A stretch of DNA of 62,752 nucleotides from an uncultured Desulfomonile sp. (GCA_964401595.1 CAYNZA010000003.1:1-62752), one strand, 5' to 3'. Numbered from the stretch's first letter, positions 1,486-37,720 are shown. The notes: a model not told the origin generated them from the letters alone. Program-made: numbers and translations.

Positions 1486-2355
1486 ATGAAGAATGGTAGT
1501 TATTACATCCCGCGCGAAAACATCTACTCTTTCATGAATCCGAGCGCGATGAACAATGAAGAGGGTCTCTACATAACCTGGGAAACTGACCCAACCGCTG
1601 CTCGACGTGTGCTGCCGCCGCCGCTGGATCTTCTCGACCCGGCTCACCCTATCGCTATGGTGTATGTCGTGAACATTCGCGAACCCACTTTCGCTCCCTG
1701 GTATATGGAAGGCGGCATTAGTCTTCTTTGTCGATATGGTGAGACGGTGGGAGCATATTTCCTGAATCTCCAGCTAAGTGGCCCGGGAGCGCACATGGGG
1801 CTTTGCAGCGGACGCGAAACGGCCGGTCTGCCCAAGAAAATGTGCGAGCGCATCGTAGTGGAACGCAACGGAGACTGCGCAAACGCTGTCATTGAGCGTA
1901 AGGGCAGACGCATTTTTTCTGTTGAGGCTGAAATGGGCGGCTACAACGACCCTCTTATGGAAATTATGCGCAAGGATTATGGACCCGGATACAGGGAACG
2001 AGGTTCCTGCTTTCTTTTCCGTTATGGCTACGAAATTGCGCCTGAAGGCTACTGTGTCTTTCCGGGAATGCGCCTTGTCAACTACGACAGTGTGACCGAC
2101 TTTCAGACCTGGGAGCCGGCATGCATTAAATCGCTTGAGATGGAGCCATCGCTCGATGACCCATGGGCTGAACTCGCAGTTGTGAAGCCATTAGGCGCTG
2201 GCTACAGCATCAATTCCAACTGGATCGCCGGCGTGTCACCTCTGGCGTATTTCGAGGGAGAAGAGTCTGACAGTATGATTTCTTACCTGTTTTCTGGCCG
2301 CTGGGATCAATCGACTCTCGGAGTAGGCCGTTACCAGCGGTACGGACAGTTTTAA
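1486..2355 (+). CDS. Acetoacetate decarboxylase (ADC) family protein
   Basis: The pattern TDPTAARRVLPPPL ... GRETAGLPKK parallels clostridial Adc (VVPEPLE ... GRELSAYPKK with the catalytic Lys). A strong RBS AAGGAGGA lies about 9 nt upstream. Confidence 0.65.
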   Translation: MKNGSYYIPRENIYSFMNPSAMNNEEGLYITWETDPTAARRVLPPPLDLLDPAHPIAMVYVVNIREPTFAPWYMEGGISLLCRYGETVGAYFLNLQLSGPGAHMGLCSGRETAGLPKKMCERIVVERNGDCANAVIERKGRRIFSVEAEMGGYNDPLMEIMRKDYGPGYRERGSCFLFRYGYEIAPEGYCVFPGMRLVNYDSVTDFQTWEPACIKSLEMEPSLDDPWAELAVVKPLGAGYSINSNWIAGVSPLAYFEGEESDSMISYLFSGRWDQSTLGVGRYQRYGQF

Positions 2356-2374
2356 TGTTTCAGGAGGGCTGCTC

Positions 2375-3292
2375 ATGAAAGTCGAAGATATCCGAAAGAT
2401 CCTGGTGGTAGGCACAGGCACGATGGGGCAAAAAATTGCATTACAGTGCTCCAGTCACGGTTACGAGGTTGTGGCCTATGATCCGGTGGCCAAGTCCCTG
2501 GAGAATGCACGGACGAAAATACCCGCTTTAGCTGAGGGACTTGTAGCAAAACAGGAAATGACACAGGAAGTTGCGGATGCCGCCCTGTCCCGGATCACTT
2601 ACACTTCCAGTCCTGAAGACGGGGCTGATGCGGACCTGCTTAGCGAATCAGTGTTTGAAGATGTGGACCTCAAGAAGAAGGTTTTTAGCCAACTAAACCA
2701 GATATGCCAGCCGAAAACCATTTTCACTACGAACTCATCCACGCTGCTGCCATCCATGTACGCTGAAGCCACCGGTCGGCCCGCCCAGTTTGCGGCTTTT
2801 CATTTCCTTGGCGTGGTGGACCACAAGCTGGTGGACATTATGCCGCACCCGGGGACCTCAACAGAAACAGTCGAACTCCTTGTGGATTTCGCCAAAACCA
2901 TCAATCAGGTCCCGCTGGTCCTCAAAAAAGAGTTTCCAGGATACGTGTCAAACGCCATTATCGGGGCCATGTGTGACAAGGCGGTTCAAATAGCGCTCGT
3001 GGAAAAGATCGCGTCGATAGAGGACGTTGACCGGGCCGTGATGATCCACCTTGATTCGGCCATTGGACCTTTCGGGTTATGGGATTTTGTGGGGCTGGAC
3101 ACCGTCTGGCACGTAGCGCAGAGCAAAGCCACGATGTCGGATGACCCTGGAGGACAGTGGTTTGCCGACATGTTAAAACGGGAGTACATCGACAAGGGTT
3201 GGCTGGGAGTAAAATCCGGGCGCGGCTTTTACACCTACCCGGACCCGGTTTTCAAGCGACCGGAATTTGTAGGCAAAGATCCAGAAGAATAA
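2375..3292 (+). CDS. 3-hydroxyacyl-CoA (3-hydroxybutyryl-CoA) dehydrogenase
   Basis: It has the N-terminal Rossmann motif ILVVGTGTMGQKIA, internal E..F(E)D...KK and a C-terminal dimerisation domain. The RBS is CAGGAGGG. Confidence 0.8.
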   Translation: MKVEDIRKILVVGTGTMGQKIALQCSSHGYEVVAYDPVAKSLENARTKIPALAEGLVAKQEMTQEVADAALSRITYTSSPEDGADADLLSESVFEDVDLKKKVFSQLNQICQPKTIFTTNSSTLLPSMYAEATGRPAQFAAFHFLGVVDHKLVDIMPHPGTSTETVELLVDFAKTINQVPLVLKKEFPGYVSNAIIGAMCDKAVQIALVEKIASIEDVDRAVMIHLDSAIGPFGLWDFVGLDTVWHVAQSKATMSDDPGGQWFADMLKREYIDKGWLGVKSGRGFYTYPDPVFKRPEFVGKDPEE

Positions 3293-3439
3293 GGCCGGAT
3301 TCTAGGGTATTTAGGCCGGGGGGAAGAAAATTTTTTCGCTTCCGGCCAATCATTAATTTTTTTGAAGAAAAATGACCGTCACCTAAATTGGCCCCATGGT
3401 AACTGTTGTGGAGACGCATGAAATTCTTCAACCCCAATT

Positions 3440-3455
3440 TGGTAGGTCAATTGCA
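3440..3455 (+). promoter_or_regulatory. Candidate sigma-54 (-24/-12) promoter for the outer-membrane protein gene
   Basis: TGGTAG-GTCAA-TTGCA has GG and GC at the canonical spacing of TGGCAC-N5-TTGCA. It sits 35 nt upstream of the ATG at 3490. This is a by-eye match only. Confidence 0.3.
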
Positions 3456-3489
3456 CGGATATTTCTGATACCGCTCCGGGAGTGAAAAT

Positions 3490-5286
3490 ATGGCTCAGAT
3501 CAGTCGAGTATGCTTAATTGTGTCACTGTTTCTCCTGCCAGTTTCTCAGGCCTGCGCCTGGGAATTCTCCATGTCCGGGAATTTCACATGGGAGTATTAC
3601 CAGTTCTCCCAACTGGGCGATCAGGGCTTCTTCGGGCCTTTTAACCAAGATAACAGCACTGTGACAACTGTGAGGCTTGCCGCTCGCAACGGTTGGCTTG
3701 GGCACGAGATTGCCCGTCGCAACGATGTGTCTTTCTGGGGTGATGAACTATCTTCAGGCTCGGATGTGGCCGCCAATTATATTTATACTGTGTTGTTCCC
3801 GAAGTTGAAATTGAACGAGGCGCTGTCTCTTCGAGGATCTTACAGAATTGGAGCCTGGAATCCGACTTCTGCAGGGGACATTGCTTATGGCCATCTCAAC
3901 ACTTCCAGGTACCTCAACAGTCAGGCTCCAGGCATGGGAAATTCATTTTCTCCAGGCTATTGGCAAACCTGGTATGCGGAGGCCAATTTTCCATGGGGCA
4001 TAGTCACAGTTGGAAAGCAGCCGAATACAATTGGTCTGGGCCTGATCATAGACTCTCTGGAGAACACTACCGAAGCGGTAGTTTTAGGCGTTCCATTCGG
4101 TCCGTTCATTGTCGGGGCCCAATACTATTTCTGGGGTCCGGGTCGAAATGCAAGCACACGACAGGCCTCAAATTATCCTCTGAGGACGGACAGGAGTGGA
4201 TCGGCCCAACCTCATTTCTCTTTCCTGCTTATGTACAGTTCAGGCAACATCAGTTCCGAGACCTATGTCGAATACAACAATGGACACAAAGGCCCGGAGT
4301 CCGAGCTTTATACCGGACAGGCGCTCTCCTCCGCAACCGAGCCCTACGGAGCATTAAATCCGATTTTTGCGGTGGACAGTTCCCAGTTTTTCGGATTCGC
4401 CAATTTTAAATATTTCAATGGACGCTTGTTCTTTAACACTGAAGTCGGGTTTTATCAGGAGTTTTTTCGGCAAAACGGTCTTTCTCTCAATCAAGTGAAC
4501 GTTCCTCTCCAATATGTGCTGCCTCAAACCCGCTACTGGGAATTGTGGGCGGGCATGATCGAATGTGGAGTTCTGGCGGGCCCTGCAAAAATCAGCTTTC
4601 TGTGGGCCTACTATCCGGGTCCGGACAGACGTGGCGGCAAACTCATAGATAGACAACCTACTATCGTTCCCATATTCTCCCCAAATGGCGGGGTGAACCT
4701 GTATTTGCCGTACAGCCTTTTGCTGGGTTATGATTACGGATCGGGGAACGGATCCATAACCCGGTCTTCCAGTCACGGCTTCATCACAGATGCGAGCACC
4801 TATGGTGTGCGGCTGGATTATGCTGTTGCCGCCAACGTCAATCTGTATGCCACATTTCTGTATGCCAACAGAATTTCCCAGGGATATGGATGGGGATGGA
4901 TAAGGCCCGACCCTTCTGAGAATTCAATAACTTCTCCTGCGCTGCAATATGGTAATGGAAACAGAGGCAACCGTGATCCGAGCGGGAACCTGATAGACCT
5001 CTCGTTCGCAAACGCTGACGGAAATCTTACGAATGCGCCAAACATCCTGGAGAGGGACTTGGGTTATGAATTCGGCGGCGGGATAGACTGGAAACTGATA
5101 GAAGGATACATATTAACAGCGCGAGTAGCCTATTGGAAGCCGGGCGACTGGTTCAAGTACGCATGTGTGGACAGGAGACAACCCGGTTGGAATAATCCAA
5201 ACTCTGGTAACCAGTGGGGAGTTAACTGGAATCGGGCAATTGACCCGATCTTTGGAGTGCGTGGAGCAATCCAGGTGGATTTTTGA
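3490..5286 (+). CDS. Outer-membrane beta-barrel / porin-like protein of unrecognised family
   Basis: The signal peptide is MAQISRVCLIVSLFLLPVSQACA. The composition is rich in Gly, Asn, Tyr and Trp with alternating patterns. The C-terminal ...GAIQVDF ends in Phe, a BAM beta-signal. Confidence 0.6.
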   Translation: MAQISRVCLIVSLFLLPVSQACAWEFSMSGNFTWEYYQFSQLGDQGFFGPFNQDNSTVTTVRLAARNGWLGHEIARRNDVSFWGDELSSGSDVAANYIYTVLFPKLKLNEALSLRGSYRIGAWNPTSAGDIAYGHLNTSRYLNSQAPGMGNSFSPGYWQTWYAEANFPWGIVTVGKQPNTIGLGLIIDSLENTTEAVVLGVPFGPFIVGAQYYFWGPGRNASTRQASNYPLRTDRSGSAQPHFSFLLMYSSGNISSETYVEYNNGHKGPESELYTGQALSSATEPYGALNPIFAVDSSQFFGFANFKYFNGRLFFNTEVGFYQEFFRQNGLSLNQVNVPLQYVLPQTRYWELWAGMIECGVLAGPAKISFLWAYYPGPDRRGGKLIDRQPTIVPIFSPNGGVNLYLPYSLLLGYDYGSGNGSITRSSSHGFITDASTYGVRLDYAVAANVNLYATFLYANRISQGYGWGWIRPDPSENSITSPALQYGNGNRGNRDPSGNLIDLSFANADGNLTNAPNILERDLGYEFGGGIDWKLIEGYILTARVAYWKPGDWFKYACVDRRQPGWNNPNSGNQWGVNWNRAIDPIFGVRGAIQVDF

Positions 5287-5703
5287 AAGCCCGTCTCCAG
5301 TCAGGACCGTGGTGAGGCCAAGTGTGAGCATCCTGGTAACTCCAGGATTGGAAATGGACTGGAGACGAACATTCCAGACTCATCTTGTCAAGTTTTCGAT
5401 GCCTCGACTATTTTCCATAATAAAAATTTAGTGGACCCAAAACACCAAAAAATCCCATCTATCTATACTTGACTGTTTCATGTCACCAATGTTATTTTTG
5501 ATTGTAGATGTGACACGTGTCAATCCTCGTTTTTAAGGACTTTTCTTCCCGACTCTTTCAATGACAGGTGTCCGGACTCTTGTCACGATGCTTGTAATGT
5601 AGCGGGTCAGCCACGGGCAGAGATCATCGTGGCTTCATGATTCCAAAATACTGAAATAACACAGGACGTGTTCAAATCAATCAAGTTGATTCTGGAGGAC
5701 GTG

Positions 5704-6420
5704 ATGTTGAGAATGTTGTCGATCTGGACAGCGGTAGTTTTGTTATGCCCTGGCCTGTGCTGTGCTGCCGGCGGTTCGGCGGGAATTTCCGCCAGTGAGG
5801 CCAAGTCCCTGTTAAAGGAGGGCAACGCCCGATATATTTCCTCTAATGTGAAACACCCAAATCAGGGCATGGATAGACGCAAACTCACTGCGACCGAGGG
5901 TCAAAAGCCTTTTGCCACCATACTCTCGTGCTCTGATTCCAGAGTTCCGTTGGAGATACTTTTTGACAGGGGTGTAGGTGACATCTTTGCCGTCAGGGTT
6001 GCTGGAAATGTGGCAAATGTTGACCAGACGGGGTCCATGGAATATGCCGTGGGGCATCTTGGCACACCACTACTGGTCGTTTTGGGTCACACCAAATGTG
6101 GCGCAGTGGCGGCTGTAGCGCAATCGGCAGACCTTCGCGGGAATATTGTCCCCTTGGCAAAGAATATCAGCGCCGCCGTGGCAACTGCCAGAAAGAACAA
6201 TCCGTCAGCTAAAGGCGATGGCATCATGAAAGACGCAATTGAGGCCAATGTATGGCAGGCCATCGAAGACATTCTGCGCACCAGTCCTGCGATTGTCGAT
6301 AGTATAAAATCGGGCAAACTCAAGGTAGAAGGCGCTATTTACGATGTGGAAACCGGGTTGGTAGTCTGGATGGGCGTGCATCCTGACCAGGGCAAGTTGC
6401 TTGACAACAAGGCCCATTAA
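5704..6420 (+). CDS. Beta-class carbonic anhydrase with an N-terminal signal peptide
   Basis: The zinc-ligand motifs CSDSRV and HTKCGAV are present. GGAGG lies 5 nt upstream of ATG 5704, giving MLRMLSIWTAVVLLCPGLCCAAG. The listed ORF starts 36 nt earlier at GTG. Confidence 0.85.
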   Translation: MLRMLSIWTAVVLLCPGLCCAAGGSAGISASEAKSLLKEGNARYISSNVKHPNQGMDRRKLTATEGQKPFATILSCSDSRVPLEILFDRGVGDIFAVRVAGNVANVDQTGSMEYAVGHLGTPLLVVLGHTKCGAVAAVAQSADLRGNIVPLAKNISAAVATARKNNPSAKGDGIMKDAIEANVWQAIEDILRTSPAIVDSIKSGKLKVEGAIYDVETGLVVWMGVHPDQGKLLDNKAH

Positions 6421-6767: not shown

Positions 6768-8324
6768 ATGGTTACCTCTAGCTCATTCAACAGCCAGATC
6801 CCCGTTGTAAAGCGCTATTTGGCCATCATGTCAGTGGTCTGGACATGTACGGTGTGCGCCTCTTTTGTATGGAGCTGGTTCGAAGTAGACGCCAAAACTG
6901 TAGAGGCGGCTCGGATTCAGGCTCGAAGCTCATTTGAGAAGGATGTCATATATCGCAGATGGAATGCGGGAATGGGTGGGGTATACGTTCCGGTCACTGA
7001 CAAAACAAGCCCTAATCCCTATCTCAAAGCGCCTCAAAGGGACATCCTGACAACGTTGGGACAAAATCTGACACTTATCAACCCGGCCTTCATGACCCGT
7101 CTTGTCCATGAAATTCAAGAAGGGCAATCGGGGACCAAGGGACACATCACTAGCCTGGACCCGATCAGGTCGGAAAACAAGGCGGACGAATGGGAGACCA
7201 GGGCGCTGAAGTCTTTTGAGAATGGACAGCAGGAAGCCTCATCTGTGGAGAATATAAGGGGAGTGTCATACATGAGGTTGATGCGCCCGCTTGTCACTGA
7301 GGAAGGTTGCCTGAAATGCCATGCGGAACAGGGATACAAAGTCGGTGACATCAGGGGAGGAATCAGTGTGGCTGTTCCGATGGCACCACTTATGCACGCT
7401 GCCGGAGGCGAGTTTTACGCTCTGTCCATAGGACACGGAGTGTTATGGTTGCTGGGTTTGGCCGGATTGTTTGTCGGGGGCAAGAGACTACAGAGAGGGA
7501 TAGAGGGGCAGGAAACTGCGGAGAAGGCATTGATCACGAGTCATAGTGAATTGGTAGAAGCCAATTCCATGATTATGGACAGCATTTATTATGCCCAGAA
7601 CATACAGTCCGCCATATTGCCTTCCGATGATAAGGTGAGGGAACTTCTGGGTGATCATTTCATTATCTGGCAGCCACGCGATATCATAGGCGGCGATTTG
7701 TACTGGCTTGACGGAAGGGATGACGAGATAGTTCTGGCTGTTATGGATTGTACCGGCCACGGGGTGCCTGGGGCGATCATGACCATGATAGCGGGCGTCT
7801 CCCTAAACAGGGCAGTCCATGAGATCGGTTACACGGACCCAGGCGCGTTGTTGGGACGCATGAATATTCTGGTGAGAAACACCTTGAAGCTGCGGGAGGA
7901 AGGTAAGCTTTTCGACGATGGTTTGGACATGGGAATCTGTCTGCTGAACCGACAATCCCGCAAAGCAATTTTTGCCGGAGCGCGAATATCATTGTTCATG
8001 CTATTGGAGCAAAAGATCACGCGGGTCAAGGGTGACACGGAAAGCCTCGGTTACAAATCTTCAAATCCGGATCATGTCTTTCAGAATCATTATTTTGACC
8101 TTCCTGCCGGCGCATCTCTGTATATGACCACCGACGGACTGATAGAACAGATAGGCGGAGATAAACACATCCCATTTGGAAGATCCGGATTCACAAGATT
8201 TATTCTCGAGAATGGCGAAAAACCGTTGTCGGAACAGCGAGACCGTTTGCTCGACACGTTTGCTCATTACAGGGGCTCCGAAGATCAACGTGACGATGTC
8301 ACTGTTTTGGGGGTAAAGATCTAG
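6768..8324 (+). CDS. Membrane sensor PP2C/SpoIIE serine phosphatase (SiaA/RsbU-like) with a periplasmic DUF3365 (Tll0287-like) c-type haem domain
   Basis: The order is an N-terminal TM segment, a DUF3365-like region ending in a single CLKCH haem-c motif, a second TM segment (VLWLLGLAGLFVGG), a coiled coil, and then PP2C motifs GGDLYW, MDCTGHGVPGA, TTDGL and DDVTVLG. Confidence 0.8.
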   Translation: MVTSSSFNSQIPVVKRYLAIMSVVWTCTVCASFVWSWFEVDAKTVEAARIQARSSFEKDVIYRRWNAGMGGVYVPVTDKTSPNPYLKAPQRDILTTLGQNLTLINPAFMTRLVHEIQEGQSGTKGHITSLDPIRSENKADEWETRALKSFENGQQEASSVENIRGVSYMRLMRPLVTEEGCLKCHAEQGYKVGDIRGGISVAVPMAPLMHAAGGEFYALSIGHGVLWLLGLAGLFVGGKRLQRGIEGQETAEKALITSHSELVEANSMIMDSIYYAQNIQSAILPSDDKVRELLGDHFIIWQPRDIIGGDLYWLDGRDDEIVLAVMDCTGHGVPGAIMTMIAGVSLNRAVHEIGYTDPGALLGRMNILVRNTLKLREEGKLFDDGLDMGICLLNRQSRKAIFAGARISLFMLLEQKITRVKGDTESLGYKSSNPDHVFQNHYFDLPAGASLYMTTDGLIEQIGGDKHIPFGRSGFTRFILENGEKPLSEQRDRLLDTFAHYRGSEDQRDDVTVLGVKI

Positions 8325-8342
8325 CAAAGGAGGCGAACCGGA

Positions 8343-8894
8343 ATGATACCCTTTAATGTTCATCAGTTCTATATCGATCTGAACCAAAGAGGCATAATTT
8401 TTTCTTTTAGTGGTCCCATATCTCAGGAAGTGATTGAGGGAATCGGAGGAACGCTCAAACAAAAAATGGAAATCGAGGATGCGGACCTCAACACCTCACA
8501 AAAAGTTTTTTCCATTTTTATTGAACAGATGCAAAATGTCGTTAATTATTCGGCCGATAGGGTGATTCTGGAAGAACGTTCAGAGGGTGAAATTCGGAAA
8601 GGTGTTTTGATAGTAGGCAAGGAAAATAGCCACTACTACGTTTTGTGCGGTAACAAAATAAAGAACGATTCTCAGGAATCAATACGTGAGCAACTGGATC
8701 TGTTGGCAAGATTAGATAAAGATGAACTAAAGAAACTGTACCGGGAACGCAGAAAAAAAACGTCGGAAAGCAACGCAAAGGGTTCCGGACTTGGGTTCAT
8801 AGAAATGGCAAGGAAATCGACCAGGCCAATAGAATTTGATATTTCCCCAGTGGATTCAGATTTTGTCTTCTTGACGATAAAAGCTGTGATATGA
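8343..8894 (+). CDS. SiaB-family (RsbW-like, GHKL-fold) protein kinase
   Basis: It is 183 aa, starts 18 nt after the phosphatase gene and has RBS AAAGGAGG. The C-terminal GSGLGFIEMARKSTRPIEF motif and the length match SiaB-type partner-switch kinases. Confidence 0.65.
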   Translation: MIPFNVHQFYIDLNQRGIIFSFSGPISQEVIEGIGGTLKQKMEIEDADLNTSQKVFSIFIEQMQNVVNYSADRVILEERSEGEIRKGVLIVGKENSHYYVLCGNKIKNDSQESIREQLDLLARLDKDELKKLYRERRKKTSESNAKGSGLGFIEMARKSTRPIEFDISPVDSDFVFLTIKAVI

Positions 8895-8904
8895 GGTAAG
8901 GAGA

Positions 8905-9291
8905 ATGGAAATTATTACAATTGAAGCGACAAAATCGAGTCCTTTTGTTCTTATTGATCCCGTCTCCAATCAAATAAAGATCAAGGGGGAATCATATCCG
9001 GAAAACGCCGCAAAATTTTTTGGGCCAATATTGTCATCGGTCAACGAATACCTAGGTTTTAGTGAAGCTCAAAGAATTATGGTGGACATTCACTTGTCAT
9101 ATTTTAACAGCAGTAGTTCAAAGGCTCTGCTCAACCTCTTCGAAATTCTCGACCAGGCCGCTTCAGATAGCAGACAAATAGAGATCAACTGGCGCTACCA
9201 TCCAGAAAACGAAACAATTTTTGAGGCGGGTGAAGAGTTTGAAGACGAAACAACAGCGCTCAAATTCAATTTTGTTCAAACTACCGGATAG
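8905..9291 (+). CDS. DUF1987 / SiaC-family regulatory phosphoprotein
   Basis: It is 128 aa. IEATKSSPFV...IKIKGESYPENAAKFFGPI...YFNSSSSKALLNLF matches the conserved SiaC pattern (ESYPEN, YFNTSS). It starts 10 nt after the kinase gene and has RBS AAGGAG. Confidence 0.75.
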   Translation: MEIITIEATKSSPFVLIDPVSNQIKIKGESYPENAAKFFGPILSSVNEYLGFSEAQRIMVDIHLSYFNSSSSKALLNLFEILDQAASDSRQIEINWRYHPENETIFEAGEEFEDETTALKFNFVQTTG

Positions 9292-9395
9292 CCCTTTGAT
9301 TTCCGTTGACTCATGGCATAGATTCCTAGTGTAATCGGGCATGAATCCCGAAATTGAAATGTTTTCATGTTTCGGAGCCGTGTCTGGATCGTATC

Positions 9396-10838
9396 ATGAA
9401 GTTCATGCCTTCAGGTGTGTGTGGCGATATGGATGAAAAAGATCTTTTTGAGAGAGAGCGACAAGTTGTTGAAACGGCCGATGCAATTCTTGCATCTGCG
9501 GCAGATAATAAAACAGCGTGGTATGATCACTACGAAAAACTTCTGAATGAATTTAGAAGGGTAGTAAAACAGTCCAAAAGGCTGATAAAGCTTGGAGATA
9601 TTTTTCAGCTAAGACTTAAAACGGTGAAGGAGAGGCTTTCGGAGGAGATTGAAAATCATCGAAAGACTCAAATAGAGAAAGAAGCTTTCCAGGCCAGGGT
9701 TTTTCAATCACAAAAGATGGAAGCCCTGGCGACTCTGGTTGGTGGCGTAGCCCATGATTTCAACAACATACTTCAGGTAATGTTGGGTTACACTGAACTG
9801 ATGTCCATGGACAAAAAAAATGATGACCCCGATCTCGAAAAACTGAAAACAGTCATTGAAGCCGGGAAAGGCGGCGCCGAGCTGGTAAAAAAACTGCTTG
9901 CCTTTGTGCAGCAAGGTAAAGGTTTTCCGGTCACATTGGATCTCAATAATCAACTTAGGGACATGATTTCAAAAATGTCTCCAACACTTCCGCAAACCGT
10001 TGATGTGGAACTCAGTTTTTTTGAAGGGCCAGCGCCAATTTATGCTGACCTCGGTGAGATTGACCAGATTCTCATGAATCTTGTCCAGAACGCTTTGGAA
10101 GCCATGCCACTTGGAGGCCGTCTCGGAATCCGGACATCAATGCACCGGTTCAATGACGAGAATTACGGGTCTCATCAGGAAATCAAACCAGGTAAATATG
10201 TTATGCTTTCAGTAACTGACACCGGTTCGGGCATGGACAAAGAGACATTAGCCAGAATGTTTGACCCATTCTTTACAACAAAGCAAAGAGGCACAACCAG
10301 AGGGACCGGATTAGGTCTCTCAGTCGTTACAGGAATTGTCCAACAGAATGCGTGGTTCATCACTTGTGACAGCCAAATTGGAAAAGGCGCCGAATTCAAA
10401 ATTTTCATCCCGTTGAGGGAAGGGGTTCCAGAGATGGCTCCCGAAACCGTTTCAGCAAGTGATGCTCGAATTCTTGCGGCGATTCTTGTGGTGGAAGACA
10501 ATCTGTTGGTGGCCGAATTGGAACGAAAAATCCTTCAAAACGCAGGTTATCAGGTTTTTCTGGCTTCGACCGGGTCTGAAGCGGTGGAGATCTTTAAAGA
10601 AAGGCGGGATGAAATATCTCTGGTAATGCTGGATCTCATAATGCCAAACATGTCGGGCGTGGACTGTTTGAAAGAAATCATGAAAATTGATCCTGATGCC
10701 ACAGTCATCGTTTTGAGCGGTTACTCACCGGAAAGCGACTTTGTGCGTCAAATATGCCCTCACATAAAGGGCTTTTTACGCAAACCCTGGCAGGCTTCTG
10801 AACTCCTTAACTCTGTTCGGGTGGCCCTGCACAGTTGA
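9396..10838 (+). CDS. Cytoplasmic histidine kinase with no sensor domain (N-terminal coiled coil, HisKA, HATPase_c) fused to a C-terminal receiver
   Basis: The H-box is LVGGVAHDFNNILQVMLGY, with N/G boxes (LVQNALEA, DTGSGM, GTGLGLS). The receiver LVVEDN...VMLDLIMPNMSG...LSGY...RKPW is canonical. The start is uncertain (TTG 9354, ATG 9396/9405/9429). Confidence 0.85.
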   Translation: MKFMPSGVCGDMDEKDLFERERQVVETADAILASAADNKTAWYDHYEKLLNEFRRVVKQSKRLIKLGDIFQLRLKTVKERLSEEIENHRKTQIEKEAFQARVFQSQKMEALATLVGGVAHDFNNILQVMLGYTELMSMDKKNDDPDLEKLKTVIEAGKGGAELVKKLLAFVQQGKGFPVTLDLNNQLRDMISKMSPTLPQTVDVELSFFEGPAPIYADLGEIDQILMNLVQNALEAMPLGGRLGIRTSMHRFNDENYGSHQEIKPGKYVMLSVTDTGSGMDKETLARMFDPFFTTKQRGTTRGTGLGLSVVTGIVQQNAWFITCDSQIGKGAEFKIFIPLREGVPEMAPETVSASDARILAAILVVEDNLLVAELERKILQNAGYQVFLASTGSEAVEIFKERRDEISLVMLDLIMPNMSGVDCLKEIMKIDPDATVIVLSGYSPESDFVRQICPHIKGFLRKPWQASELLNSVRVALHS

Positions 10839-10860
10839 TTAGAGCTACGGCAGGTTGAAC

Positions 10861-13224
10861 ATGGCCTTAATACTTGTAATTGATGAAAACCAGGCGCGAC
10901 TTGCCAGCACATGTGAAACCCTCGTGAACGCCGGTTCCCAAACATTAGGAGCAGTCACAGGCGCCGAGGGTCTTCGTTTGTTGGCCGAACATCAGCCGGA
11001 ATTAGTTTTGCTGGAAGAGCGCCTTCCCGATCTTTCCGGAGATGAGTTATTTCGCAGGATCAGGGACGATCCTTCTTTCAATGAAACCTACGTCATTTTG
11101 ATGTCCGGCATTGATGTCGAATCAGAGGCTCAGGATACCGCCTTTGAACGTGGAGCGGTTGTGTATATTCCCGGACCGGTTTCCAAACGTGACTTACTGG
11201 CCAGGATTGAACCCTTGAGCCATCTGATGAAGCGGAATGGAGACTCAATTAGTTATTTCGGGGAGCCGACAGTGACGCCGGACGCGTATTTTCAGGATGT
11301 CACTAAACTGGACTTGGAGCAGGAATCTCTTCGGCAACATTTGGTTGCTCTTCACAGACTGGTTGAGGACCGCTCCAACGCATTAATTCAGAATCAGAAA
11401 TTACTTTCCAAAATCATCAATCATCTTCCTGTAGCCATAACCTATTTAGATTCCAGCAGCCGTTTTGTGTTTTGCAACAAGACTTTCCAGTCGTGGTGGC
11501 TCAAATCATCAGAACAGATTGTGGGGTATGAGGCTAGGGAAATTCTAGGTGAAAGTAATGCCGTAGCGCTTTCCCAGATCAGAGACGGTCTTCAGGGAAA
11601 GATCCAGGAAGTTGAGTTGACGTACAAATTTCCTGACGGCCATACTCGGACGATATGGTCAAAGATAGTGCCGGATATGGGCATGGACGGAACCGTCTGC
11701 GGTGTAATCAGGCTCACTATTGACATTAGCGACAGGAAAAAGGCCGAGCAGGATTTGCATGACAGGGAAGAACTTTTCAGAAAGCTTTTCTACATTGCGC
11801 CGGATTCAATGGCAATAAGCAGATTGGAAGACGGAAAATATGTTGAGGTAAACCAGAAATTCACTCAACTGACCGGATTCTCCAAAGATGAAGTGCTGGG
11901 TCGGACTTCTCATGATGTTGGCCTGTGGACTAGCCCTAAAGAATTCAAGTTTTTGTATGACCAACTAAACAAGACCGGACACCTGGAAAATTTTGAAACT
12001 GAATTCATGCTTAAAGATGGCCAGGTCAGGGTTGGGCTTCTGTCGGCCACATTGCTGGAACTTGATAAAATACCCCATGTGCTTGGAGTAGTTCGGGATA
12101 TTGATGAAATAAAAAAGGCGCATGAGGAAAACTCACGCTTGGCGACCGCCGTCGATCAGGCAGCCGAAAGAGTAGTCATCACGGATTCTGGTGGGAAAAT
12201 AGTTTACGTAAATCCTGCCTTCGAGAAGATAACCGGTTATACCCGCGATGAAGTAAAAGGAAAATATCCGGCTGTAATAAGTAGCGGTCAACACGGTAAA
12301 TCCTTCTACGAAGAACTTTGGAAAACAATATCCAGTGGAAATGTCTGGAAAGGTCGCATCATTAATAAACACAAAGATGGCCATTTATTTCATGAACAAT
12401 CGACAATAACCCCTGTAAAAGATTCAACCGGCAGAATTAAAAACTATGTTCAAATGGCTACCGACATCACCGAGGAAGAGAACCTCAGGGGTCAGCTTGC
12501 CCAGTCTCACAAGATGGAAGCCATAGGAACTTTGGCCAGTGGTATTGCTCATGATTTCAACAATATAATTCAAGCGATCATGGGTTACACAGAACTGGTC
12601 ATGGATGATTTGCCTGTTGGAAGCCCGGCTCATTGTAATTTAGTGAAGGTCATGAACGCCGCCAGGCACTCAGGGGACATGGTAAGGCAAATACTGACGT
12701 TCAGTCGCCGTTCGGAGGCCGAGGCTAAAGCCATTGACATCGTTCCAATAGTAAAGGAAGGGCTCAAATTTCTGAAATCTGCAATCCCGTCTACCATTGA
12801 GATCGAAGAAAACATACAACCTGATCTGGGCATGATCCTTGGAGATCCTACCCAGATCCAACAGGTATTGATGAATTTGTGTGTCAACGCCTCTCAAGCC
12901 ATAAAGGGTGACAAAGGAACCATTTTGATCGAATTAGAGGAAGTCAACCTCGACAATAATTTTGCCGGCTACAACCCGCCTCTTGCTGCGGGAAAACACA
13001 TCAGATTGGCGGTTTCGGACACAGGTAGCGGAATTCCTTCAAATATCATGAGCAAGATTTTTGATCCCTATTTTACTACCAAGGTCGCAGGTGAAGGCAC
13101 AGGTCTGGGGCTATCTGTAGTTCACGGTATAGTCAGCAGTAGCAACGGCGCCATAACCGTGAACAGTGATCCCGGAAAAGGAACAACCTTTTCCGTTTAT
13201 TTCCCCTTGGTTGAACAGGAATAG
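10861..13224 (+). CDS. Degenerate receiver - 3x PAS/PAC - HisKA - HATPase_c sensor histidine kinase
   Basis: The N-terminal REC-like fold is followed by PAS modules (for example AERVVITDSGGKIVYVNPAFEKITGY). The H-box is LASGIAHDFNNIIQAIMGY, with DTGSGI and GTGLGLS. The ATG is at 10861; the listed ORF starts at TTG 10855. Confidence 0.85.
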   Translation: MALILVIDENQARLASTCETLVNAGSQTLGAVTGAEGLRLLAEHQPELVLLEERLPDLSGDELFRRIRDDPSFNETYVILMSGIDVESEAQDTAFERGAVVYIPGPVSKRDLLARIEPLSHLMKRNGDSISYFGEPTVTPDAYFQDVTKLDLEQESLRQHLVALHRLVEDRSNALIQNQKLLSKIINHLPVAITYLDSSSRFVFCNKTFQSWWLKSSEQIVGYEAREILGESNAVALSQIRDGLQGKIQEVELTYKFPDGHTRTIWSKIVPDMGMDGTVCGVIRLTIDISDRKKAEQDLHDREELFRKLFYIAPDSMAISRLEDGKYVEVNQKFTQLTGFSKDEVLGRTSHDVGLWTSPKEFKFLYDQLNKTGHLENFETEFMLKDGQVRVGLLSATLLELDKIPHVLGVVRDIDEIKKAHEENSRLATAVDQAAERVVITDSGGKIVYVNPAFEKITGYTRDEVKGKYPAVISSGQHGKSFYEELWKTISSGNVWKGRIINKHKDGHLFHEQSTITPVKDSTGRIKNYVQMATDITEEENLRGQLAQSHKMEAIGTLASGIAHDFNNIIQAIMGYTELVMDDLPVGSPAHCNLVKVMNAARHSGDMVRQILTFSRRSEAEAKAIDIVPIVKEGLKFLKSAIPSTIEIEENIQPDLGMILGDPTQIQQVLMNLCVNASQAIKGDKGTILIELEEVNLDNNFAGYNPPLAAGKHIRLAVSDTGSGIPSNIMSKIFDPYFTTKVAGEGTGLGLSVVHGIVSSSNGAITVNSDPGKGTTFSVYFPLVEQE

Positions 13225-13227
13225 GAC

Positions 13228-14028
13228 ATGAATAACCTCATTAATTACAAGGAAGTGTGGGCGGCGTTGGGTAATTTTACCTGGCGTATTGTGGCAGCTA
13301 CAATTGTGGTAGTCGTTGGAATCTGGCTGGTTAAGAGAATAACAGGGATTATAGACCGGTTACTTGTAAAGAGGAATGTAGAGCCGACTATAGTCCATTT
13401 TGTGAACAGTTCCTCTCAAGTCATACTCTATGGTCTTGTCTTCATAGAGGCGGTTCACAAGGTGGGAGTCGAGAGCAGTTCGCTGATAGCCCTCGTAGGA
13501 GCGGCTGGTTTTGCTGTTGGTTTTGCGATGAAAGCGCATCTGTCGAATGTTGCCGCTGGATTACTGATAATTCTTTTTAGACCATTCAGTGTAGGAAATT
13601 ACATTCAAGTAGGCAAGACTGAGGGTACTGTTGACAAGGTTGAATTGCTCCACTCTCAGATAAGGACCCCAGACAATACAATCGTGATAGTGCCCAACTC
13701 CCAACTCACATCTTCGCAAATAGTCAATTATTCCCTCAGAGACACCCGGCGACTGGTGATTAACATGAGAGTCCTTTACGATGTCGATTTCGACCACGTC
13801 AGGAGAACCATACAGACCATAGTCGATGAGGATCCCAGAATACTCAAGGATCGTAAAGCAATCATAGCAATTCAGTCGCTTGGGGAAAACAGTCTAAAAG
13901 TTGTCCTCAGGTGTTGGGTGAAATCGTCAGATCACTGGAGAGTGCAATTCGACACCACGGAAAAGATAAAACAGCGATTTGACGAAGAAGGAATCGGCTT
14001 CCCTGCTCAGCAAGCAGTTTCCAGATGA
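13228..14028 (+). CDS. MscS-family small-conductance mechanosensitive channel
   Basis: Three N-terminal TM helices are followed by the pore/beta-domain signature AAGLLIILFRPFSVGNYIQVGKTEGTVDKVELLHSQIRTPDNTIVIVPNSQL. It starts 3 nt after the kinase stop. Confidence 0.85.
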   Translation: MNNLINYKEVWAALGNFTWRIVAATIVVVVGIWLVKRITGIIDRLLVKRNVEPTIVHFVNSSSQVILYGLVFIEAVHKVGVESSSLIALVGAAGFAVGFAMKAHLSNVAAGLLIILFRPFSVGNYIQVGKTEGTVDKVELLHSQIRTPDNTIVIVPNSQLTSSQIVNYSLRDTRRLVINMRVLYDVDFDHVRRTIQTIVDEDPRILKDRKAIIAIQSLGENSLKVVLRCWVKSSDHWRVQFDTTEKIKQRFDEEGIGFPAQQAVSR

Positions 14029-14375: not shown

Positions 14376-14743
14376 ACTCCTGACATTTAGAATCCGGCTA
14401 AAAAGCTAGTCGTAATGTGACACCTCTGAACGACTCGGGATCAAGACCAAAACCATGACGCTCAACAGGCCATGAGACTTTAAGAATCTGATTTTTTAAG
14501 ATTATATTGGCTACGTGCCTTAGAAATATCATACATATTTAAAATGCTCCAGTAAAATTCTCCGGGATCGCCTTATGGAGGGTATTCCCCCATTCGTCGA
14601 TAAAGGTCACAAATGACCCTGAAACTTGCTATTGATCGACCTCAAACTCAGTAATTTGCACAGAAAAAAATTAGAGCAGTGTTTGCAACTATGATATCCT
14701 GAAGATGAGCAATACATGTCATGCCACGCATTAAGGTTGTGTG

Positions 14744-17074
14744 ATGACCAGATCTATTAAATACTTCGCCGGCGGGCTTCTCTGTCTTTTTCTTCTTTGT
14801 GAATGTATGAAAATTGATGCTCGCGCCAGACATGATAATGATCCTGGTGTGAGTCACACACCTCAGAACTATACAGGCTCTCAAAGTTGCCGAAAGTGTC
14901 ACGAAAAATTCTACCAGTTGTGGGCGCCTTCGCACCACGGGTTGGCCATGCAGCCTTTCACGGTGGATTTTGCACGAGATAACCTCACTCCACACGATAG
15001 CGAAATTGTCATAGGAGAATACAAATACCGACTGGAGATTATTGAAGGGGAGGGATGGGTTGTGGAGCGAGGTGCCCAAGACATGAAAAACTATCGGATC
15101 GATCACGTCATGGGTGGAAAGAATGTTTATTACTTCCTTGCCTCAATGGATCGCGGCAGGCTTCAGACTTTGCCGCTGGGGTACGATGTCAACCGAAAAG
15201 AATGGTTCGACGTGGTCGCCAGCGGTGTCCGACATTTGTCGGGCCAAACACACCAAACGATAAACTGGAAGGACTGGCAATACACTTTCAACACATCCTG
15301 CTATGGTTGCCACGTCAGCCAGGTTTCCACGAATTACGATTCCAGGACAGACACATACAACACCGTGTGGAAGGAGCCCGGAATCAATTGTGAGGCTTGT
15401 CACGGACCCGCCCAGGAGCACATCAGGGTTTGTGAATCGGCGCCAAAAGGGACTATTCCAAAAGATCTCAAGATTATACGTGGTGGTCGGGATTTCTCAG
15501 TGGAACAAAACAACGGGACATGTGCGTCATGTCATGCAAAATCTGTTGTAATTACAGAAACATTCCAGCCAGGGTTCAAATTCTTTGACCATTTCGGGCT
15601 GGTGACTCTGGAAAGCCCGGACTACTATCCGGATGGGCGGGACCTGGGTGAAAACTACTCTTACACGTCCTGGCTCATGAGCCCATGCGTCAAATCAGGA
15701 AAACTTGATTGCCTCCATTGTCACACATCCAGCGGGCGATACAAATTCAAAACGTCTGACAATCCTAATCTGGCATGCATGGCATGTCACAAGGAAAAGG
15801 TTGATAATCCCACTGAACACACAATGCACAAGCCGGACAGCCCGGGTAACAAATGTGTGGCATGCCACATGCCAATGACTGAATTTGCGAGGATGCGGAG
15901 AAGTGATCATTCGATGAGACCTCCGGCCCCGGCGGCCACAATCGAGTTCAATTCACCCAACGCATGTAATATCTGCCATGAAGACAAGGACCCAAAGTGG
16001 GCCGATGAGTGGGTTCGAAAGTGGCGCAAACGCGACTATCAGGCTGCGGAAATAAGCCGTGGCAAATTGATTGAATCCGGCAGGAAGAGAGACTGGTCCA
16101 GGTTAGATGAGATGATTGATTATGTTACTGGCCCAAATCGGGACGAGATCGTAGCTACATCACTGATAAGACTGATGACGCCGTCGGCAGATCCCGGATT
16201 TTCCCGAACCCTGTTGACCCTGGTAAAAGACTCTTCGCCTCTTGTTCGTTCTGCAGCAGTTACTGCCCTTCAAAATTATCCGTCAAGAGGGGCTATGTTG
16301 GCTATTGTTGAAGCCGCTGGGGATGAATACCGTCTGGTTCGTGTCAGCGCAGCAGCTGCTATGTCGGGTTATTCAAGCACACCGCTATCGCCTGGCGACA
16401 AAAAGAAAGTAGAGATGGCAAACAAGGAATACCTTGATTCGATTTTGTCTCGACCTGATCAGTGGGACTCTCACTACAACCTCGGCAACTATTATCTCGA
16501 CCGTGGAGTCTATACAGAGGCTATTTCCTCCTATGAAAAGGCTCATAAACTTGAACCTCGAGCAATACTGGTGATGGTGAATGAGGCCATGGCCTACGCA
16601 GGCATGGGCGATAGGCCCAAGGCAGCCGCATCCCTGGAAAAGGCCTTGAAAGTGGCTCCAGATAACGCCGTTGCAAATTTTAACCTTGCCTTGCTACAAG
16701 CCGAAGACGGTAATCTGGCAGGCGCAGAAAAACATCTTAGGACGGCTCTTGATTCAGACCCGCAGATGGGGCAGGCCGCCTTTAACCTTTGTGTAATACT
16801 CTCGAGAGACAGACTCGATGAGGCGGTTCAATTCTGCCAAAAAGCCGTTAAGGCTGCCCCGAACATTCCCAAGTATGCATTTACGCTGGCTTACTATCTG
16901 CAACAGAAGGGACAGTTTACACAAGCAGCGGATATTCTGGAAAAACTGATTGATCGCTTTCCAAATTATTCAGATGCATACACTCTGGCCGGTGAGATAT
17001 ACAAAAAACAGGGCAAGAAGGCTGACGCAATCAGAATCTACAAAAAAGCCATTGAGAAGGTCGGAAAACGTTAG
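14744..17074 (+). CDS. Exported octahaem c-type cytochrome fused to HEAT-like and TPR repeats
   Basis: A signal-like N-terminus is followed by eight CxxCH motifs (CRKCH, CYGCH, CEACH, CASCH, CLHCH, CMACH, CVACH, CNICH). HEAT-like segments follow (SPLVRSAAVTALQNY, YRLVRVSAAAAM), then C-terminal TPRs (YNLGNYYLDRGVYTEAISSYEKAHKLEP and others). Confidence 0.85.
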   Translation: MTRSIKYFAGGLLCLFLLCECMKIDARARHDNDPGVSHTPQNYTGSQSCRKCHEKFYQLWAPSHHGLAMQPFTVDFARDNLTPHDSEIVIGEYKYRLEIIEGEGWVVERGAQDMKNYRIDHVMGGKNVYYFLASMDRGRLQTLPLGYDVNRKEWFDVVASGVRHLSGQTHQTINWKDWQYTFNTSCYGCHVSQVSTNYDSRTDTYNTVWKEPGINCEACHGPAQEHIRVCESAPKGTIPKDLKIIRGGRDFSVEQNNGTCASCHAKSVVITETFQPGFKFFDHFGLVTLESPDYYPDGRDLGENYSYTSWLMSPCVKSGKLDCLHCHTSSGRYKFKTSDNPNLACMACHKEKVDNPTEHTMHKPDSPGNKCVACHMPMTEFARMRRSDHSMRPPAPAATIEFNSPNACNICHEDKDPKWADEWVRKWRKRDYQAAEISRGKLIESGRKRDWSRLDEMIDYVTGPNRDEIVATSLIRLMTPSADPGFSRTLLTLVKDSSPLVRSAAVTALQNYPSRGAMLAIVEAAGDEYRLVRVSAAAAMSGYSSTPLSPGDKKKVEMANKEYLDSILSRPDQWDSHYNLGNYYLDRGVYTEAISSYEKAHKLEPRAILVMVNEAMAYAGMGDRPKAAASLEKALKVAPDNAVANFNLALLQAEDGNLAGAEKHLRTALDSDPQMGQAAFNLCVILSRDRLDEAVQFCQKAVKAAPNIPKYAFTLAYYLQQKGQFTQAADILEKLIDRFPNYSDAYTLAGEIYKKQGKKADAIRIYKKAIEKVGKR

Positions 17075-17181
17075 GCCATCAGCCGGCTGGTGTCATGACT
17101 TGTGCGATATTTGTTCATTACAGTTCACCGACATTGTCAACTTTGTCATAAAAACGCAGCGTCTCAGGTGAGGTTTAAAAA

Positions 17182-18210
17182 ATGGGCCGTGTCAAAAATA
17201 AATATGGGACTGTATCTATCTTGATAATTTTCGTTTCGCTGGTCTTAAGTTTTTCGGTGTCGGCGCAGCCCGATCCGCTTCCTTCGTGGAATGACGGCCC
17301 GGCCAAACGAGCGATTATTTATTTTGTTGAAGAAACTACCAATGAGGCAGGATCAGGTTTTGTAACCCCCAATAATCGTGTGGCCACATTCGACCAGGAT
17401 GGCACACTGTGGGTTGAACACCCGGTTTACACCCAGGTCATCTACTGTCTCGATCGAGTTCGAGAGATTCTAAAAACCAGGCCGGAACTTGCGAACACCG
17501 AACCATTCAGGACGGTCTTCTCTGGCAAGAGCGATGCCATAGCCCGTCTCAGCATGGAAGATCTGGAAAAAATTTTCAATACTGCTATGTCCGGAATGAA
17601 CGTTGAGGAGTTCGCGGAGCAGGTCAAAAAATGGATGAACGACTCAATGCATATCCGTTGGAATAGACCCTACACGCAACTGGTTTACCAACCTATGATC
17701 GAAGTCATTCAATACCTTAAGTCCAAGGGTTACAGGACATATATTGTCACAGGGAGCGCACAGGACTTCGTGAGGGAGTATTCCGAGCAGGTCTATGGAA
17801 TTCCCCCCGAACAGGTGGTTGGAACAGTTCAGGCCACAAAATACGGTTATGACAAGGTCGGCAAACCGACACTCATCAAAGAGCCGAAGGTCCTGTTGCA
17901 AGATGACTATGCCGGAAAGCCGGAGGGCATTCATCTGGCAATAGGTCAAAGGCCCCGAGCTTCTTTCGGTAACTCCACGGGCGACCGTCAGATGTTGGAA
18001 TACACAAAGGCTGGCGCGGGGCAAAGCCTCTGCATGCTGGTTCTTCACGATGACGCAGCTCGGGAATATTCCTACGGACCTGCGCAAGGTCTGCCGGGAA
18101 CAAAAATCGGCGCCTTTACCCAGGAACTTTATGATGAAGCCGTAAAAAGTGGGTGGGTAGTCATCAGCATGAAAAACGACTGGAAGCGAGTTTTCCCGTT
18201 CGAGCCATAA
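17182..18210 (+). CDS. Exported HAD-superfamily (subfamily IB-like) hydrolase/phosphatase
   Basis: The signal peptide is ILIIFVSLVLSFSVSAQ. HAD motif I is ATFDQDGTLW, with later TGS and GNSTGDRQM motifs. Confidence 0.65.
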   Translation: MGRVKNKYGTVSILIIFVSLVLSFSVSAQPDPLPSWNDGPAKRAIIYFVEETTNEAGSGFVTPNNRVATFDQDGTLWVEHPVYTQVIYCLDRVREILKTRPELANTEPFRTVFSGKSDAIARLSMEDLEKIFNTAMSGMNVEEFAEQVKKWMNDSMHIRWNRPYTQLVYQPMIEVIQYLKSKGYRTYIVTGSAQDFVREYSEQVYGIPPEQVVGTVQATKYGYDKVGKPTLIKEPKVLLQDDYAGKPEGIHLAIGQRPRASFGNSTGDRQMLEYTKAGAGQSLCMLVLHDDAAREYSYGPAQGLPGTKIGAFTQELYDEAVKSGWVVISMKNDWKRVFPFEP

Positions 18211-25911: not shown

Positions 25912-26304
25912 CATCCTTAAACGCCGAAAATTTGTGTGCTCGAATTCCTTTTCTGGGAATGTACATTTTGACCTGCCCACGTTACTGTATGAGGTTGGTC
26001 TAATTCCGGTCTGCACCTAGTGTGTGGATCACAGCCCTAAAAAAGTATTGCAATGGAAACAGAAATATTCTGGTTTCCAAATTCATAATGAGTAAACGGC
26101 GATAAGACAGAGGTTTATTCGGGAAATCACTGCTGTAAAACATTTTCCCGAGAGTGATGCGTTTTAGTCCGTCAAGGTTTATTGGAAATATCTATGTTAC
26201 AATAAATACTAATTTTTGTTTGGTCAATATTTTTAATTCTTCAGACCATCATAAGCCTGTTCGAAGTTAGCATGCAGTCCTTTTCACCTACATGGAGGTC
26301 AAAG

Positions 26305-30420: not shown

Positions 30421-30622
30421 GATGATTCAACCTCTTGAAGTGTCTGATCGACAATCATTTCTATTATATTACTGTCTGGTCGATAACATCAAGTTGGCTT
30501 TACATGAAATGGCCCGGGAGTTTAGAATTTTGACCCGGACTCCGGATTGTCATAAAACGGTAAGGCTGGCTACAGAAATTCCAGACATTTTTTCTAGGAC
30601 TAACTTCGATTTTTCTGTCATT

Positions 30623-37187: not shown

Positions 37188-37226
37188 GTGATTCTCCACT
37201 GGTGACCTCAACTATTGGGGATGTCA

Positions 37227-37703: not shown

Positions 37704-37720
37704 TTTCTTGCTCCATCAGA

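Follow-up and report, generated by a model that had tools for sequence, protein, structure and literature searches.

Genes and domains of the locus

A 62,752-nt stretch of DNA from an uncultured Desulfomonile sp. (GCA_964401595.1, CAYNZA010000003.1:1-62752; hereafter the window, meaning the whole stretch) carries at 6768-14028 six co-directional genes, the first four of which resemble the SiaABCD partner switch of Pseudomonas aeruginosa. An earlier analysis of the DNA (the sequence-only reading) had proposed that a haem-c sensor phosphatase, a SiaB-like kinase and a SiaC-like protein are wired here to histidine kinases and an MscS channel instead of a diguanylate cyclase. All six open reading frames (ORFs) were found on the plus strand, closely spaced as it had described, with intergenic gaps from gene 1 to gene 6 of 18, 10, 62/104 (137 if the kinase start is 9429), 16 and 3 nt. 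The features, with the source of each assignment in brackets, are listed below (TM, transmembrane segment).

6768..8324, +, SiaA-like sensor phosphatase, gene 1 (Pfam Tll0287-like and SpoIIE, PDB 6K4E, hydropathy); TM1 6816-6875, haem-c Cache (Tll0287/DUF3365) ~6876-7418, TM2 7419-7478, PP2C/SpoIIE ~7515-8321
7308..7322, +, CLKCH haem-c attachment motif of gene 1 (motif, aa 181-185)
8343..8894, +, SiaB-family Ser/Thr protein kinase, DUF6272, gene 2 (NCBIfam NF038262, Pfam, PDB 6KKO_A)
8905..9291, +, SiaC-family phosphoprotein, DUF1987, gene 3 (Pfam SiaC, PDB 6KKO_C/7E6G)
9396..10838, +, hybrid histidine kinase with stalk, HisKA, HATPase_c and receiver, gene 4 (Pfam)
9429..9671, +, SiaD-like N-terminal stalk of gene 4, predicted SiaC-docking module (HMM, hhalign)
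10855..13224, +, second kinase with degenerate receiver (REC), three PAS, HisKA and HATPase_c, gene 5 (Pfam)
13228..14028, +, MscS-type channel, gene 6 (Pfam; 3 nt after gene 5)

Pfam agreed with the proposed identity of genes 4-5 as histidine kinases and of gene 6 as an MscS channel, and profile searches likewise placed genes 2 and 3 in the SiaB and SiaC families. The reported absence of GGDEF also stood: the GG[DE]EF motif occurred in none of the six frames of the window, and a profile of 56 GGDEF domains searched against 497 window segments gave a best E of only 1.6. The promoter scan returned fewer promoter-like sites than shuffled sequences and only intragenic terminator-like sites, and was uninformative on operon structure. 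The closest relatives were uncultured Desulfomonile metagenome-assembled genomes (L006 and L007; L numbers denote comparison loci), with a SiaC identity of 87 %.

The architecture that had been read for gene 1 (TM, DUF3365/Tll0287 domain with a single CLKCH, TM, PP2C) was recovered by Pfam, hydropathy and comparison with 6K4E. Hydrophobic segments at aa 17-36 and 218-237 flank a Tll0287-like domain (PF11845; 75.9 bits, 5.5e-21, cutoff 24.1), and the SpoIIE match reached 72.1 bits (7.3e-20). The PP2C part aligned to the solved P. aeruginosa SiaA (6K4E) with E 1e-52 and keeps the metal-binding Asp motifs GGD, DCxGHG, TDG and RDD; Pfam detected no HAMP domain between TM2 and PP2C. The single CLKCH lies between the two hydrophobic segments as a putative haem-c site, so that gene 1 combines the profile match with a CXXCH in a predicted extracytoplasmic domain, the two marks of sCache_heme/Tll0287-like proteins. 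Cysteines of the periplasmic domain are confined to CLKCH, and hence a Cys axial ligand is not available. Against the SiaA equivalog NF038263 gene 1 scored 238.4 bits, below the cutoff of 700, with the match confined to PP2C (profile positions 395-656).

Gene 2 exceeded the cutoff of the NCBIfam SiaB_fam_kinase model NF038262 (198.7 bits, cutoff 85), matched Pfam DUF6272 (149 bits, 7.9e-44) and aligned to the solved SiaB 6KKO_A over 169 residues (E 2e-24). Gene 3 covered 119/120 positions of the Pfam SiaC profile PF09345 (136 bits, 6.5e-40, cutoff 24.5) and aligned to solved SiaC (6KKO_C/7E6G) with E 2.6e-18. Scores against the equivalog models were 124.8 versus a cutoff of 225 for gene 2 (SiaB, NF038264) and 97.7 bits versus 150 for gene 3 (SiaC, NF038265). 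Because all three proteins fall below the NCBIfam equivalog cutoffs, genes 1-3 are, on these scores, family members and not orthologs of P. aeruginosa SiaA, SiaB and SiaC.

Ser69 of gene 3 (9109-9111), in the NSSSS loop at 9106-9120, aligns to the phospho-site Thr68 of SiaC and is the predicted phospho-acceptor. The flanking N68 and S70 align to SiaC N67 and S69, and N68/S69/S70 were invariant in 15 relatives. Gene 3 keeps 12 of the 14 published SiaC contacts, either unchanged or with a conservative substitution, among them Y31, Y65, N67, T68 (as Ser), S69 and E110 (residue list from PMC8457831). SiaC R103 and SiaD D91, both listed as making side-chain hydrogen bonds to the partner protein (PMC8457831), each correspond to Thr in the window proteins.

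The stalk of the gene 4 kinase and its genomic distribution

Gene 4 encodes HisKA, HATPase_c and a C-terminal receiver (Pfam), and not the GGDEF diguanylate cyclase domain of SiaD. The phospho-His codon lies at 9753-9755 in an AHDFNN H-box, and in the receiver (10482-10817; Asp codon 10632-10634) D, S and K align to CheY D57, T87 and K109; the HisKA His, HATPase_c and receiver Asp/Ser-Thr/Lys triad of a hybrid histidine kinase are thus all present. Because the spacer between the SiaC gene and the kinase (9292-9428) was poorly conserved and carried non-triplet indels in the spacer alignment, the kinase probably starts at ATG 9429 (MDEKDLF), with 9396 and 9354 as alternatives; the only conserved element found in this spacer was a short TTCATGGC just after the SiaC stop.

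This protein had been described in the sequence-only reading as a kinase with no input domain, and its receiver had gone unmentioned. The former has to be revised, as gene 4 carries an N-terminal stalk like that of SiaD. About 80 N-terminal residues are conserved among SiaC-adjacent kinases, even in L057 with its different HisKA-type core. An HMM built from kinases only and run on 2,357 ORFs matched, with E between 5e-18 and 1e-8, the N-termini of the SiaD-type GGDEF proteins found in SiaABC clusters, and hhalign of the kinase-only against the GGDEF-only stalk profile gave 99.87 % with E 1.3e-31 over 73 columns. In an alignment of 42 stalks E13, L41, D60 and Q63 were invariant and F10 invariant or nearly so, with the consensus LFxxEExxIxxAExLL...YxxLLxxYxKLxxQxxRLVxx[GS]DxMQxxLNxLN over ~80 residues. 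No Pfam model covers this module. Within the window, which encodes at least six kinases, it occurred only in gene 4 (E 1.8e-28), beside SiaC.

When the joint stalk profile was searched against PDB, it matched P. aeruginosa SiaD (7E6G_A) at about residues 62-105 (E 0.0079), aligned on 'LSLSERYHKQLRRLEKVARISDRYQQMMRDLNLALKE'. This stretch holds S82, D83 and Q86, the proximal SiaC-binding motif, which contact SiaC T68, N67 and S69, and an S82A/Q86A mutant is impaired in SiaD function (PMC8457831). The GDIFQ of gene 4 (9594-9608) aligns to SiaD S82-D83-R84-Y85-Q86; D83 and Q86 are identical, and K77 to R, V78 to L, R80 to K, I81 to L, Y85 to F and R90 to K are conservative changes. By profile comparison, gene 4 therefore shares with SiaD an N-terminal helical stalk with a SiaC-binding motif. 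Covariation across 69 SiaC/stalk pairs (mutual information, MI, with average product correction, APC) placed the column equivalent to SiaC L107 in 7 of the top 25 of 6,256 pairs, a signal that phylogeny confounds. Judged by these alignments, the stalk is the input of gene 4, and the kinase, which sits in the SiaD position, is the likely target of SiaC because it carries a SiaD-type SiaC-binding stalk.

For a wider survey, one genome per species was scanned with a SiaC alignment, which yielded 80 species-level loci. Local domain mapping found GGDEF in the cluster in 36 of them and a kinase immediately downstream in 10, the rest being mixed. Among close and intermediate relatives the four-gene core of haem-Cache-PP2C, DUF6272, SiaC and hybrid kinase was kept (L001-L004 and L006-L008). 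The kinase of L004 begins 5 nt downstream of SiaC and is followed by a sulfatase, with neither a second kinase nor an adjacent MscS; downstream of the module in L001-L003 there is another PAS kinase, and MscS is not adjacent. The conserved unit is therefore genes 1-4.

In a neighbour-joining tree the kinase-linked SiaCs formed coherent clades. The clade of the window (window, L001-L008, L012, L016, L037) was kinase-linked throughout, with a stalk-kinase in every locus and a GGDEF gene in the cluster of none. A local loss of GGDEF in the window, as would have been implied by relatives always carrying an adjacent GGDEF gene, was rejected on account of this clade-coherent SiaC-kinase adjacency. 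Within the 80 loci, stalk-bearing kinases lay at a median of 63 nt from SiaC (13/18 within 150 nt) versus 2,878 nt for stalk-less kinases (1/17 within 150 nt), and all 40 stalk-GGDEFs lay within 2.1 kb versus a median of 3,055 nt for stalk-less GGDEFs. L046 has a stalk-GGDEF and a stalk-kinase together in one cluster.

The association also held in the reverse direction. A narrower stalk alignment returned six metagenome loci picked by the stalk alone, all with PP2C-SiaB-SiaC directly upstream and four with a haem-Cache sensor. An exhaustive phmmer search of the 84-aa window stalk against 1.84 billion representatives gave ~32 true N-terminal hits, with fusions to HisKA (15), HisKA_2/HWE (4), GGDEF (6) and Hpt (2); the six distant stalk-kinases that were looked up all had SiaC in the cluster. 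Combined, 12/12 stalk-kinases in these reciprocal look-ups stood beside SiaC. Among the six distant look-ups are L093 and a related SiaABC-stalk-kinase locus in the complete genome of cultured Desulfomonile tiedjei DSM 6799 (L092).

Curated Pfam models assigned output domains to 68 stalk ORFs of the 80 loci: GGDEF to 41, HATPase_c to 22 (HisKA 16, Hpt 4, CheX 3), Guanylate_cyc to 3, and HD_5 and SpoIIE to one each. Wiring of SiaC to a kinase is thus not rare: roughly one in four of the loci surveyed has it, and kinases make up about a quarter to a third of the stalk partners in this SiaC subfamily; ~40 % of those partners are not cyclases, and most of these non-cyclase partners are histidine kinases. 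With such varied outputs the stalk behaves as a portable input domain. We lean towards a broader reading, in which the ~80-residue stalk would be an unannotated, portable 'SiaC-receiver' domain through which one Ser/Thr switch gates many output classes (GGDEF, HisKA, HisKA_2/HWE, HATPase-CheX, class III nucleotide cyclases, HD_5 and PP2C) and, in Desulfomonile relatives, joins haem-c Cache sensing of NO or redox to a His-Asp phosphorelay.

Individual arrangements near SiaB/SiaC genes include the stalk fused to a class III nucleotide cyclase (L047 682-1683, minus strand), to an HD_5 (HD-GYP-like) domain (L084 8027-9001), to a PP2C phosphatase (L025 855-1847) and to a HATPase_c-CheX protein (L062 4385-6544). 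L093 (2943-9052) encodes Cache-HAMP-SpoIIE, DUF6272, SiaC, stalk-HisKA-HATPase-REC-Hpt and REC-GGDEF, the stalk-kinase following SiaC by 2 nt and the REC-GGDEF regulator following the kinase by 4 nt; this is an apparent intermediate, a SiaABC switch that seems to reach c-di-GMP (cyclic di-GMP) synthesis via a phosphorelay.

Proposed wiring and its alternatives

Most likely, genes 1-4 are a partner-switching unit of the SiaABC type that has a histidine kinase, and not a diguanylate cyclase, as its output, a reading to which we give a probability of about three in four. It is based on the family memberships, the homology of the stalk, the match of its motif to a solved interface and the two-way genomic association. 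Binding of SiaC to the stalk, the signal and the downstream target are what we infer from the sequences for the following scheme. The haem-c Cache of gene 1 would sense a small ligand or a redox change, most likely NO by analogy, and set the activity of the PP2C domain, which together with the gene 2 kinase would determine the phosphorylation state of Ser69 on gene 3. Unphosphorylated SiaC would dock on the GDIFQ-containing stalk of gene 4 and stabilise or re-register its helices toward the dimerisation and histidine phosphotransfer (DHp) domain, and thereby change autophosphorylation; phosphoryl groups would then flow to gene 4's own receiver and to some Hpt or regulator. Docking would be blocked once Ser69 is phosphorylated, just as phosphorylated T68 blocks it in the case of SiaD. 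His109 of gene 4 lies ~50 residues downstream of GDIFQ with no Pro in between. A 2:2 complex would be expected from the single motif in the stalk, and activation is assumed, by analogy with SiaD, as the direction of the SiaC effect on the kinase.

Several results weigh against this scheme. The match of the stalk to SiaD in 7E6G was marginal (E 0.0079; domain i-E 0.077) and ranked below a designed coiled coil. SiaD S82 is replaced by Gly in gene 4 and throughout the clade of the window, where D and Q do not vary, and a single motif is present in the stalk versus two in P. aeruginosa SiaD. The structure-predicted 107-85 pair was outside the top 25 covariation pairs, and a single-sequence AF2 model of stalk plus DHp, of low confidence with a mean pLDDT of 54.7, was all-helical and showed no continuous stalk-DHp helix. 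Neither an Hpt protein nor a cognate regulator was found in the window; the local profile used for Hpt held 5 sequences and made a weak test. In the immediate clade of the window 104-137 nt separate SiaC from the kinase, versus -3 to +15 nt in other lineages, and the two could possibly be transcribed separately. Finally, the survey was seeded with the patterns YFNSSSSK[AV] and E[CA]GEEF and covers one SiaC subfamily.

The stalks might resemble each other only as coiled coils or signalling helices in general do, without taking part in docking, the kinase being regulated otherwise, e.g. via its receiver. The module is indeed helical and low in complexity, a designed coiled coil was the top PDB match of its profile, and single-sequence phmmer also drew Ala-rich repeat proteins. 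A generic helix would hardly explain why specific positions (F10, E13, L41, D60, Q63) are (near-)invariant, why the two stalk profiles align over 73 columns, why true hits are single N-terminal matches, why having a stalk sets the members of the cluster apart from bystander kinases and cyclases, and why the conserved D..Q coincides with mutationally validated SiaD contacts, and we regard this explanation as very improbable. Only slightly less improbable is that the kinase is a mere neighbour and that SiaC acts on a SiaD-type GGDEF protein encoded elsewhere in the genome. Only 62.7 kb of that genome is visible, stalk-GGDEF is the commonest partner type (41/68), and L046 combines both partner types in one cluster; however, gene 4 itself bears the stalk, the adjacency is kept throughout a clade in which no locus has a cluster GGDEF, and all 12 reciprocal look-ups found SiaC by the stalk-kinases.

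A third possibility, unlikely though less so than these two, is that the full six-gene unit is the module and that SiaC also controls gene 5 and the MscS channel, directly or via gene 4. Gene 5 has the order REC-3xPAS-HisKA-HATPase_c (Pfam). In its receiver (10855-11220) a Glu ('LVLLEE', codon 11014-11016) stands in place of the phospho-Asp, and there is no counterpart of the conserved Lys (CheY K109); by this alignment it is a pseudo-receiver, possibly phosphomimetic, and simple phosphotransfer from gene 4 to gene 5 is unlikely. Gene 6 matched four Pfam MscS domains above cutoffs, including the TM, beta and C-terminal domains of MS_channel, and scored 208.5 bits against NCBIfam PRK10334, below its cutoff of 321. 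The short spacers between genes 4, 5 and 6 (16 and 3 nt) suggest that these are co-transcribed, an adjacent PAS-rich second kinase occurs in most clade loci with enough flank (L001-3, L008, L012, L016/L088, L087, L089, L091), and L004 and L016/L088 also have MscS-family genes within 3-5 kb. Yet the stalk profile run over the window found no stalk in gene 5 or gene 6. The stalk-less PAS kinase that recurs near the module in this clade varies in position, strand and architecture and is absent in L004, MscS is directly adjacent only in the window, the gene 5 receiver is degenerate, and the surrounding genes that the loci share (cytochrome-TPR, sulfatase) suggest leftover synteny of the region. 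In the window, genes 5 and 6 are probably co-transcribed with the module; they are not members of the conserved unit and may at most have a weak functional link to it. The output proposed in the sequence-only reading thus stands for gene 4, the likely SiaC target in the SiaD position, and is not supported for gene 5 and MscS, which are stalk-less and positionally unconserved.

MscS-family genes within 3-5 kb of the module were seen only in the clade of the window and nowhere else in 1.07 Mb of loci centred on SiaC or the stalk. They lie at 15563-17302 (minus strand) in L004 and at 3092-4162 (minus strand) in L016, the same as 1641-2711 (minus strand) in L088, so that position and strand vary.

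Relation to known systems and neighbouring genes

The four-gene unit resembles P. aeruginosa SiaABCD (PA0172-PA0169; 6K4E, 6KKO, 6KKP, 7E6G) in that a PP2C phosphatase is paired with a SiaB-type kinase to control a single Ser/Thr of a DUF1987 protein, in that the target has an N-terminal helical stalk bearing a [S/G]-D-x-x-Q SiaC-binding motif, and in the gene order phosphatase-kinase-SiaC-target. It differs in the catalytic part of the target (HisKA-HATPase_c-REC, not GGDEF), in the predicted acceptor (Ser versus Thr), in the number of stalk motifs (one, whereas P. aeruginosa SiaD has two in tandem, 32 residues apart) and in the sensor, a haem-c Cache with no HAMP detected; L093 has Cache-HAMP-SpoIIE. 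SiaC is structurally related to STAS domains (PMC8457831). In STAS-type switches (HptB-HsbR-HsbA/HsbD of P. aeruginosa, BgrSTUWV/BgrR of Sinorhizobium, RsbU/V/W) a small antagonist-like protein is likewise switched by a phosphatase/kinase pair and then binds its partner, an enzyme or a sigma factor, to regulate it. In contrast to these, DUF1987 is a separate sequence family, the kinase of the window is DUF6272/SiaB and not RsbW-type (Pfam), and the partner is a histidine kinase predicted to be contacted via a dedicated stalk. In Bacillus, KipI and Sda are small soluble proteins that bind a helical region of the kinase KinA near the DHp domain and modulate autophosphorylation. To our knowledge, neither is controlled by a dedicated Ser/Thr kinase and phosphatase, and neither is homologous to DUF1987 or to the stalk.

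For the sensor, DUF3365/Tll0287 has been renamed 'sCache_heme' in two 2026 preprints (bioRxiv 10.64898/2026.02.01.703092, 10.64898/2026.05.25.727664), in which CXXCH was kept in 99 % of family members and a signalling-linked member with no axial Cys bound NO with a slow off-rate and formed no stable O2 complex. By analogy, our best guess for the signal of gene 1 is NO, or else redox. The Pseudomonas azotoformans Cache_heme-HAMP receptor of these preprints shares with gene 1 the periplasmic Cache, a CXXCH haem c between two TM helices, the lack of an axial Cys and the coupling to cytoplasmic Ser/Thr phosphorylation; its HAMP recruits a PknB-like kinase, whereas the Cache of gene 1 is fused directly to PP2C. 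SpoIIE is not among the domains named in the preprint legend of the most frequent sCache_heme architectures. In our survey the haem-Cache-PP2C architecture was limited to kinase-output loci (5/18 vs 0/40, Fisher p = 0.0019, with loci that are phylogenetically non-independent).

In several SiaABC-kinase clusters a V4R-domain gene directly precedes a sensor-less PP2C gene (L092, CP003360 4161465-4175420; the 75,709-nt JGI contig encoding P0016; the P0140 contig), and the V4R protein may be a separate, alternative small-molecule sensor. Furthermore, a gene for a ~780-aa multihaem cytochrome-HEAT-TPR protein with about eight CXXCH adjoins the SiaABC-kinase module, and three arrangements were seen: the gene lies downstream in the window (14741-17074), L001 (12481-14811) and L002 (8183-10513) and immediately upstream in L004 (5008-7416). 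The protein may serve the haem-c sensor as a redox partner, or its position may reflect mere regional synteny.

Full-text literature searches found only work on P. aeruginosa SiaABCD, in which a kinase output for SiaABC switches is not described, in agreement with the earlier remark that such an output had not been characterised. The SiaABCD authors speculated that DUF1987 proteins 'modulate adjacent proteins' and gave no description of kinase partners or of the stalk as a domain that different proteins share (PMC8457831). The SiaABC partner switch itself is known; the proposed transferable SiaC-receiver stalk reaches beyond a single locus. SiaABCD has so far been known only as a c-di-GMP/biofilm switch in one pathogen; if the stalk is transferable, SiaABC would be a general signalling adaptor, a function would be offered for many 'input-less' kinases and DUF1987/DUF6272 genes, and a domain family missing from Pfam would be defined. 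If the proposed wiring is true, it would connect Ser/Thr partner switching to two-component signalling directly and by a dedicated route, and would offer a testable model of how Ser/Thr phosphorylation is fed into two-component systems, for which the related locus of cultured D. tiedjei DSM 6799 is a place to test. In anaerobic bacteria that reduce sulfate or respire organohalides, the haem-c Cache input possibly ties a newly described family of bacterial NO sensors to this pathway.

Upstream of the module, the window encodes a protein of 598 aa that has a signal-like sequence at its N-terminus and matched no Pfam family (3490-5286), followed by a beta-class carbonic anhydrase (5668-6420) that is syntenic in L001. 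The window is very rich in signalling genes. A TPR-CHAT (caspase-like protease) protein of 1,130 aa lies at 26272-29664, further PAS/Cache hybrid kinases at 30281-33778 (plus strand), 33816-37211 (minus strand) and 37721-39088 (minus strand), a lone receiver at 37230-37715 (minus strand) and a CHASE3-PAS protein at 39537-41252 (minus strand).

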